The notes under the pieces were generated by a model. It saw only the letters and a list, made by a program, of their open reading frames with translations, did no database searches and had not been told where the DNA came from. From NCBI RefSeq assembly GCF_988242995.1, contig NZ_OZ547043.1: a stretch of 64,000 bases of DNA; one strand, 5' to 3'. Every line of letters starts with the position of its first letter. Position 1 is the stretch's first letter. The translations under genes were made by a program, and so were the position numbers. This document shows, one piece after another, positions 12,523 through 12,855 of this stretch.

Positions 12523-12618
12523 TTGAAATCTCTTGGTTTATGTTGTCGTCAGGCTCATGCCGGAGCAGGGTGATGAGCGGTTATATTTAGTGTGCGAATA
12601 ATTTTGCATGTAAATGCA

Positions 12619-12637
12619 AATGAGAAATATACTCATT
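12619..12637 (-). promoter_or_regulatory. candidate Fur box in the fhuE promoter region
   Basis: near-palindromic AT-rich 19-mer aatgagaaatatactcatt about 100 bp upstream of the fhuE start; fhuE is an established Fur-regulated gene. Confidence 0.35.
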
Positions 12638-12855
12638 CATATTTATCGTGTAAACCAAACAGAGAATGTCTTTTCAGCGCATTCGCAGGCAGAAATGGGA
12701 TTAATGGCGATATATACGGCAGCAAAACGATTTTTTGCTTAAGAAATCGTGAGTTAAGGTTGAAAGAGCAGGTTTAACTCGACCATACTCTATACTCGCA
12801 GTGTGGCGCGGCGTAGCATGGCGCAACGCATGGCTATTTGAAAAAGGAAAATGTC

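Follow-up and report, generated by a model that had tools for sequence, protein, structure and literature searches.

The 19-bp palindromic element aatgagaaatatactcatt, located in the intergenic region upstream of fhuE, is very probably (probability about 0.9) the Fur operator of the fhuE sigma-70 promoter. The element lies in a 64,000-nucleotide stretch of DNA, hereafter the window, which carries the ptsG-fhuE-hinT region of E. coli; the product of fhuE is the TonB-dependent receptor for ferric coprogen and rhodotorulic acid. The fhuE Fur operator is already documented in E. coli K-12, and the finding is correct but ordinary. A Fur-box-like sequence is said to have been seen upstream of the gene as early as the 1990 fhuE sequence paper of Sauer, Hantke and Braun.

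The 19-mer occupies positions 12619-12637 (+ strand), 97-115 nt upstream of the fhuE ATG, and consists of two perfect 6-bp arms, AATGAG and CTCATT, around a 7-bp spacer. On the sense strand, it contains the 7-1-7 element TGAGTAT-A-TTTCTCA, flanked by AA and TT. The initial annotation had placed a dyad-symmetric 19-mer about 100 bp upstream of the fhuE start in AT-rich surroundings, and both points were borne out: G+C content is 0.30 in 12590-12660, compared with 0.41 for the intergenic region and 0.49 for the whole 64-kb window. The interval given there (12523-12840) had the correct start and a slightly short end, because hinT, the divergent neighbour of fhuE, starts with GTG at 12856; the fhuE-hinT intergenic region spans 12523-12855 (333 bp) and has the same length in K-12. 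When we simulated intergenic regions of the same size and composition with a first-order Markov model (Markov-1), 51% held at least one perfect inverted repeat with 6-bp arms and a 3-10 nt spacer. Thus, a bare 6-bp-arm dyad is no more than chance would give, and we rejected the dyad as evidence by itself. The features of the control region are collected in Table 1.

Table 1. Features of the fhuE control region in the window (positions on the strand as presented; a dot marks features without strand).
Feature	Position	Strand	Basis and remarks
fhuE coding sequence	10333-12522	-	729-aa open reading frame; RefSeq annotation of matching E. coli loci; 95-98% identity to Escherichia FhuE
Remaining 95-nt fhuE 5' UTR	12523-12616	-	Between genera, only the first ~10 nt and the ribosome-binding site are conserved
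Weak Fur-like sites downstream of the start	12591-12615	.	12591, 4.6 bits; 12597, 5.5 bits
Fur occupancy extent (K-12 equivalent)	12611-12643	.	Peak P31 placed by indel-free alignment; matches the matrix cluster 12613-12643
fhuE transcription start	12617	-	G on the sense strand; transferred from K-12 (Kim et al. 2012)
Main Fur operator (probable)	12619-12637	.	19-bp site centred on the 7-1-7 element; sense strand reads AATGAGTATATTTCTCATT
-10 hexamer TATATT	12626-12631	-	Consensus scan; identical in 49 of 52 compared sequences; at -14 to -9
-35 hexamer TTTACA	12649-12654	-	Consensus scan; kept as tgtTTaca in compared species

We scored the element with symmetric 19-bp Fur matrices obtained by iterative refinement and trained on the best site per region in 19 Fur-regulated intergenic regions of K-12, fhuE being left out (fhuA, fepA-fes, fepD-entS, fepB-entC, fiu, cirA, exbB, feoA, ryhB, fhuF, yncE, fecI, sufA, nrdH, mntH, tonB, fur, sodA and nfeF-nfeR). 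The recovered consensus was AATGATAATCATTATCATT for the 7-1-7-centred matrix and GATAATGATAATCATTATC for the matrix in the classical register. With the 7-1-7-centred matrix, the 19-mer reached 14.83 bits and ranked first among the 63,982 positions of the window, for a gene that lies outside the training set. This score has an iid probability of 3.2e-6 per position, with 0.2 matches expected per window, and was reached by 0.6% of simulated intergenic regions. In leave-one-out scoring, the training sites themselves reach 8.4-24.3 bits (median 19.2); the 19-mer lies within these values, in their lower quarter. The 15-bp core alone ranks 18th in the window, about 6 bits of the full score being owed to the outer AA/TT flanks. 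Weaker matches were found exactly 6 bp on either side of the 19-mer, at 12613 (5.0 bits) and 12625 (4.1 bits). As a check of the matrix itself, 16 training promoters were compared with listed ChIP-exo peaks; in 9 of them, the best site overlapped the nearest peak, the two centres lying 2-14 bp from each other.

The score depends on the register in which the element is read. Taken in frame as a classical 19-bp box, the 19-mer scores -7.9 bits (rank 4614 in the window), and we rejected this reading; shifting the classical register by 3 bp in either direction brings the score to 7.44 bits at 12616 (rank 34) and 7.31 bits at 12622 (rank 36). Direct comparison with the consensus sequences gave the same picture: 14 of 18 positions agree with the 7-1-7-centred consensus AATGATAATnATTATCATT, while the classical box is matched at 9 of 19 positions in register and at 12 of 19 in each register shifted by 3 bp. 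The resemblance to a Fur box that had first been proposed therefore holds for the 7-1-7-centred form and fails for the classical consensus in register, and the site has to be read either as 7-1-7-centred or as a pair of classical boxes displaced by 3 bp. The 7-1-7-centred register used here appears to be that of the M9 model (Chen 2007), for which the legend of Figure 4 places the 7-1-7 region at -7 to +7. Overall, the matrix evidence for the 19-mer is positive but moderate and dependent on register.

Published K-12 data bear directly on the element. The window stretch 12400-12900 matches 5,425 of 5,426 complete E. coli genomes, in which fhuE and hinT are annotated at this place; the best match is 99.0% identical (strain PCN033 among others), and the window strain is therefore not K-12. 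Across the whole intergenic region, the window aligns with both MG1655 and W3110 without indels. We converted coordinates as window position = current K-12 coordinate - 1161551 + 12522, allowing for the 777-bp offset at the fhuE locus between the current K-12 genome version and the previous one, on which older papers are based. This shift was checked on fhuE itself (1158585-1160774 in Kim et al. 2012 and 1159362-1161551 in the current version), on fhuF, which was consistent further along the genome, and on other ChIP-exo peaks.

The K-12 form of the 19-mer lies at 1160871-1160889, and its centre, 1160880, is exactly the coordinate of the fhuE Fur site listed by Chen 2007 (12.4 bits) and corresponds to window position 12628. 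In MG1655, Fur ChIP-exo peak P31 (1160863-1160895, centre 1160879) is intergenic and assigned to fhuE; it was detected in the iron-replete condition only and is flagged as present in the earlier data set of Seo et al. (Gao 2023). In W3110, Fur ChIP-exo peak P41 (1163221-1163233) corresponds to window positions 12615-12627; with the W3110 ATG at 1163128, the peak is 93-105 bp upstream of the start codon. The window and K-12 sites occupy orthologous positions, share the same -35, -10 and distance to the ATG and have 18 of 19 bases in common, and differ at 12633, where K-12 carries G and the window T.

Consistent with an operator at this place, fhuE depends on Fur in published expression data. 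Deletion of fur changed fhuE expression by log2 +5.0 in MG1655, +6.1 in W3110 and +3.0 to +8.4 in six other strains (Gao 2023), which is an 8- to 330-fold derepression across eight E. coli strains. The divergent hinT was unaffected in MG1655 (log2 change -0.17) and slightly changed in W3110 (-0.47). Fusions of the fhuE promoter to lacZ are likewise Fur-repressed, and these results bear out the status of fhuE as a Fur-repressed gene. The binding tests of Chen 2007 concerned other promoters, and for fhuE itself neither a gel shift nor an in vitro footprint was found in the literature searched. By analogy with the K-12 orthologue, with which it shares 18 of 19 bases, we infer that the window strain has the same Fur occupancy, transcription start and fur dependence.

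The same region contains the core promoter. On the fhuE strand, the sole promoter-like match combines the -35 and -10 hexamers with a 17-nt spacer and agrees with the consensus at 10 of 12 positions. The only mapped transcription start comes from K-12, where Kim et al. 2012 (Table S1) report a fhuE start at 1160869 on the - strand, with 4 reads obtained under repressing conditions and a 95-nt 5' UTR, preceded by the sequence ...GAATGCGTATATTTCTCATTTG, also given as ...TTTACATGACAAATATGAATGCGTATATTTCTCATTTG. Transferred to the window, this start falls 2 nt downstream of the 19-mer; its distance of 9 nt to the downstream edge of the -10 hexamer is at the long end of normal. Relative to it, the 19-mer spans -20 to -2 and the ChIP-exo footprint -26 to +7. 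The Fur site thus overlaps core promoter elements, with the -10 at its centre, the hexamers being consensus matches and the start a transfer from K-12. We found no transcription start near fhuE in the Cappable-seq supplement, no promoter map in the FoxR paper and no paper using the term 'fhuEp' in the literature searched. The initial annotation had singled out the 19-mer as the most plausible Fur operator of the region, and this is supported: the matrix score is not poor, and the operator is not mapped elsewhere, the published K-12 start falling at 12617 and the ChIP-exo footprint (12611-12643) being centred on the 19-mer.

We then compared the region across species by scanning one genome per species, which gave 54 fhuE loci with 51 usable upstream regions, hence 52 sequences together with the window. 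The genera compared were Escherichia, Citrobacter, Klebsiella, Kluyvera, Enterobacter, Leclercia, Buttiauxella, Pantoea and Rahnella. The Fur matrix picked out this element in every usable region, some 76-190 nt ahead of the start codon. The 52 sequences share a conserved block, AATG[A/C]GTATATTTC[T/G]CATT followed by TTGCATT, together with a -35 element, and their 19-mer-anchored consensus reads tgtTTaca...t.Aat...AATGcGTATATTTC.CATTTGcATT, in which the -35, the 19-mer and the surroundings of the start can be recognised. The block is kept down to 55% FhuE protein identity (Pantoea, Rahnella), and the flanking DNA is unalignable between genera. From the -35 to about +10, it is nearly invariant across three families of Enterobacterales, including at positions that are off the Fur consensus.

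Within the 19-mer, variation is essentially confined to the symmetric positions 5 and 15. The C/T combination is found in 23 of the 52 sequences (K-12 and most Escherichia; 11.1 bits), C/G in 21 (Citrobacter, Leclercia and Enterobacter; 7.4 bits), A/T in six (the window, Buttiauxella and Pantoea ananatis; 14.8 bits in five and 12.3 in Buttiauxella brennerae) and G/T in two. Lineages with the weakest, C/G form often have an additional, stronger Fur-like site by the start codon, scoring 11.8 bits at -19 or 13.0 bits at +2; an example is AATATTAATAATTATCAAG at -19 in the Citrobacter freundii group. Such a site was found at loci L027, L030, L031, L032, L033 and L069 of that group and at L048 and L053 (Leclercia, Lelliottia). 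These extra sites in C/G species suggest a compensating change of operator layout.

Does the conserved block reflect Fur binding? Because the central bases of the 19-mer are the -10 hexamer, conservation alone cannot separate constraint by Fur from constraint by RNA polymerase. The block could therefore be the core promoter only (-10, discriminator and start), with the Fur operator elsewhere, for example at 12483-12501 or 12591-12615, and RNA polymerase alone does explain part of the conservation through the -10 hexamer at the centre of the 19-mer. The first of these places holds an intragenic Fur-like 19-mer, TTTGATGTTGATTATCCCT, within fhuE codons 8-14, which scores 9.3 bits in the window; its K-12 counterpart, at 11.7 bits, narrowly exceeds the promoter 19-mer of that strain (11.1 bits). 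However, the K-12 footprint and the W3110 peak cover the promoter 19-mer and not the intragenic site about 136 bp away, and the intragenic sequence is not conserved outside Escherichia; we therefore rejected 12483-12501 as the operator. The weak sites at 12591-12615 could, from their sequence, extend Fur binding at high occupancy, and lie outside the equivalent of the K-12 ChIP-exo footprint. Moreover, the conserved arms AATG.G and C.CATT fall outside the -10 hexamer and match Fur half-sites. We consider it very unlikely that the block is a core promoter and nothing else.

Alternatively, the dyad could bind a different dimeric regulator, which would replace Fur or work together with it. Conservation of the block is stricter than the Fur consensus demands, and a second factor would fit the invariance of non-matching positions in three families. 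The region is also rich in symmetry: it has seven perfect inverted repeats with 6-bp arms, compared with 0.9 expected, and a second small dyad at the start site, GCAT-N4-ATGC, is kept in 28 of the 52 loci. However, no analysis that we performed and no literature that we searched points to another factor, and no such factor is needed to explain the conservation, given the large derepression in fur deletion strains, a Fur peak found only under iron-replete conditions and the overlap with the -10. A different regulator is thus highly improbable as an explanation of the dyad.

A nucleic-acid hairpin, whether an RNA stem-loop or a DNA cruciform, is effectively refuted: although the arms are perfect over 6 bp in the window strain and the variable positions 5 and 15 face each other, with both A/T and C/G combinations occurring, pairing is not maintained because 23 of 52 sequences carry the C/T mismatch, the fhuE mRNA does not contain the palindrome because the start at 12617 lies downstream of it, the stem is short and AT-rich, Rfam families gave no match in 12300-13000, and a sequence scan found no terminator-like site. 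The 19-mer as the Fur operator of the fhuE promoter remains our reading.

Two further groups of repeats were seen in the intergenic region. A perfect 7-bp inverted repeat, TTTGCAT/ATGCAAA at 12603-12620, straddles the transcription start, and, with its inner 4 bp paired, the mRNA would begin with a GCAU-UUAC-AUGC hairpin; the count of 28 loci given above for this dyad includes compensated forms (TTAT/ATAA, GCGT/GTGC), and the dyad is broken in K-12. Between the fhuE and hinT promoters, 12721-12750 holds a cluster of overlapping short inverted repeats (AGCAAAACGATTTTTTGCTTAAGAAATCG); Escherichia and Citrobacter conserve its core, TTCTTAAGCAAAAAA, and Klebsiella does so in part.

The perfect symmetry of the 19-mer in the window strain is owed to a single base. 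The window and K-12 differ at eight intergenic positions, five of which fall within the 42 bp of 12607-12648 (12607-12608, 12633, 12645 and 12648). At 12633, T in place of G makes the dyad perfect over 6 bp and lifts the matrix score from 11.1 to 14.8 bits (+3.7). When we searched complete E. coli genomes for the exact 33-mer 12611-12643, the T form was present in 12 of 5,426 and the K-12 form in 4,436; a 28-base word shared with 12590-12660 was found in only 431 genomes. The perfect dyad is thus a rare allele of a well-known site, most E. coli carrying an imperfect dyad, and what had drawn attention to the element is a rare variant.

How would Fur act at this promoter? When iron is plentiful, an Fe2+-Fur dimer would bind the central 7-1-7 element of the 19-mer, and one or two more dimers would probably occupy the weak overlapping sites 6 bp on either side, giving a footprint of about 33 bp. 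Bound Fur would deny RNA polymerase access to the -10 region and the start, and promoter occlusion is the most likely mechanism of fhuE repression. When iron is scarce, Fur would leave and fhuE would be transcribed with its 95-nt leader.

This arrangement can be compared with known Fur sites. The classical consensus box has also been read as overlapping 7-1-7 inverted heptamers (the model of Baichoo and Helmann, as cited in Chen 2007) or as dimer sites spaced by 6 bp, and published Fur site clusters show weaker matches exactly 6 bp on either side, as does the window 19-mer. Most Fur clusters overlap sigma-70 promoters (Chen 2007). Unlike in the consensus Fur box, the central heptamer positions of the window site are occupied by the -10 hexamer. 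Strong sites come in arrays at fhuF and fepB-entC; at fhuE, one strong site is flanked by weak ones. The receptor genes fhuA, cirA, fiu and fepA are likewise Fur-repressed iron-uptake genes with the operator in the promoter region; however, their operators score higher (17.9-21.6 bits in training, 15.6-20.7 leave-one-out), and several of them show at least two ChIP-exo peaks where the fhuE promoter shows one.

On the other side of the intergenic region, the published K-12 hinT transcription start (1161078, 52 reads; Kim et al. 2012) maps to 12826, which gives a 30-nt leader. This start does not fit the sole promoter-like match on the + strand, TTGAAA...CATACT at 12760-12789, and hinT more likely relies on a weaker -10, for example TAGCAT at 12814-12819. 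A second MG1655 Fur peak, P32 (1161165-1161198), appeared irrespective of the iron condition, and the table of Gao 2023 enters 'No' as to whether the Seo et al. data set already had it. Its equivalent, 12913-12946, lies inside hinT and contains no Fur matrix match above 2 bits; the peak is probably non-specific.

Elsewhere in the window, the second-best Fur matrix match is AACGGATATCATTATTAAT at 55599-55617 (14.5 bits), in the AT-rich ymgC-pdeG region beyond icd, and several further top matches cluster at 50-56 kb. These matches are probably driven by composition; K-12 ChIP-exo data list condition-independent Fur peaks near ycgZ, ycgG and ymgI. The window also carries two IS200-family copies, at 21819-22536 and about 50423-51140, which match each other at 99%. 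One copy, between ymgK and ycgX, has a position shared with PCN033; the second copy is at about 21.8 kb.

Reading of the sequence alone thus picked out a true operator, a result of little import beyond annotation. The analysis also defines the layout of this control region in the window strain: the -35, the -10, a start at about 12617, the Fur site and the 95-nt leader. What it adds to published knowledge is that the operator is among the most conserved non-coding blocks around fhuE in Enterobacterales and that a rare allele closer to the consensus exists. A further layer of control at the block, beyond Fur and RNA polymerase, is doubtful; it might take the form of another factor or of a 5'-terminal hairpin affecting mRNA stability, and, as part of the same tentative suggestion, T12633 could tighten the repression of coprogen uptake in a minor lineage of E. 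coli.
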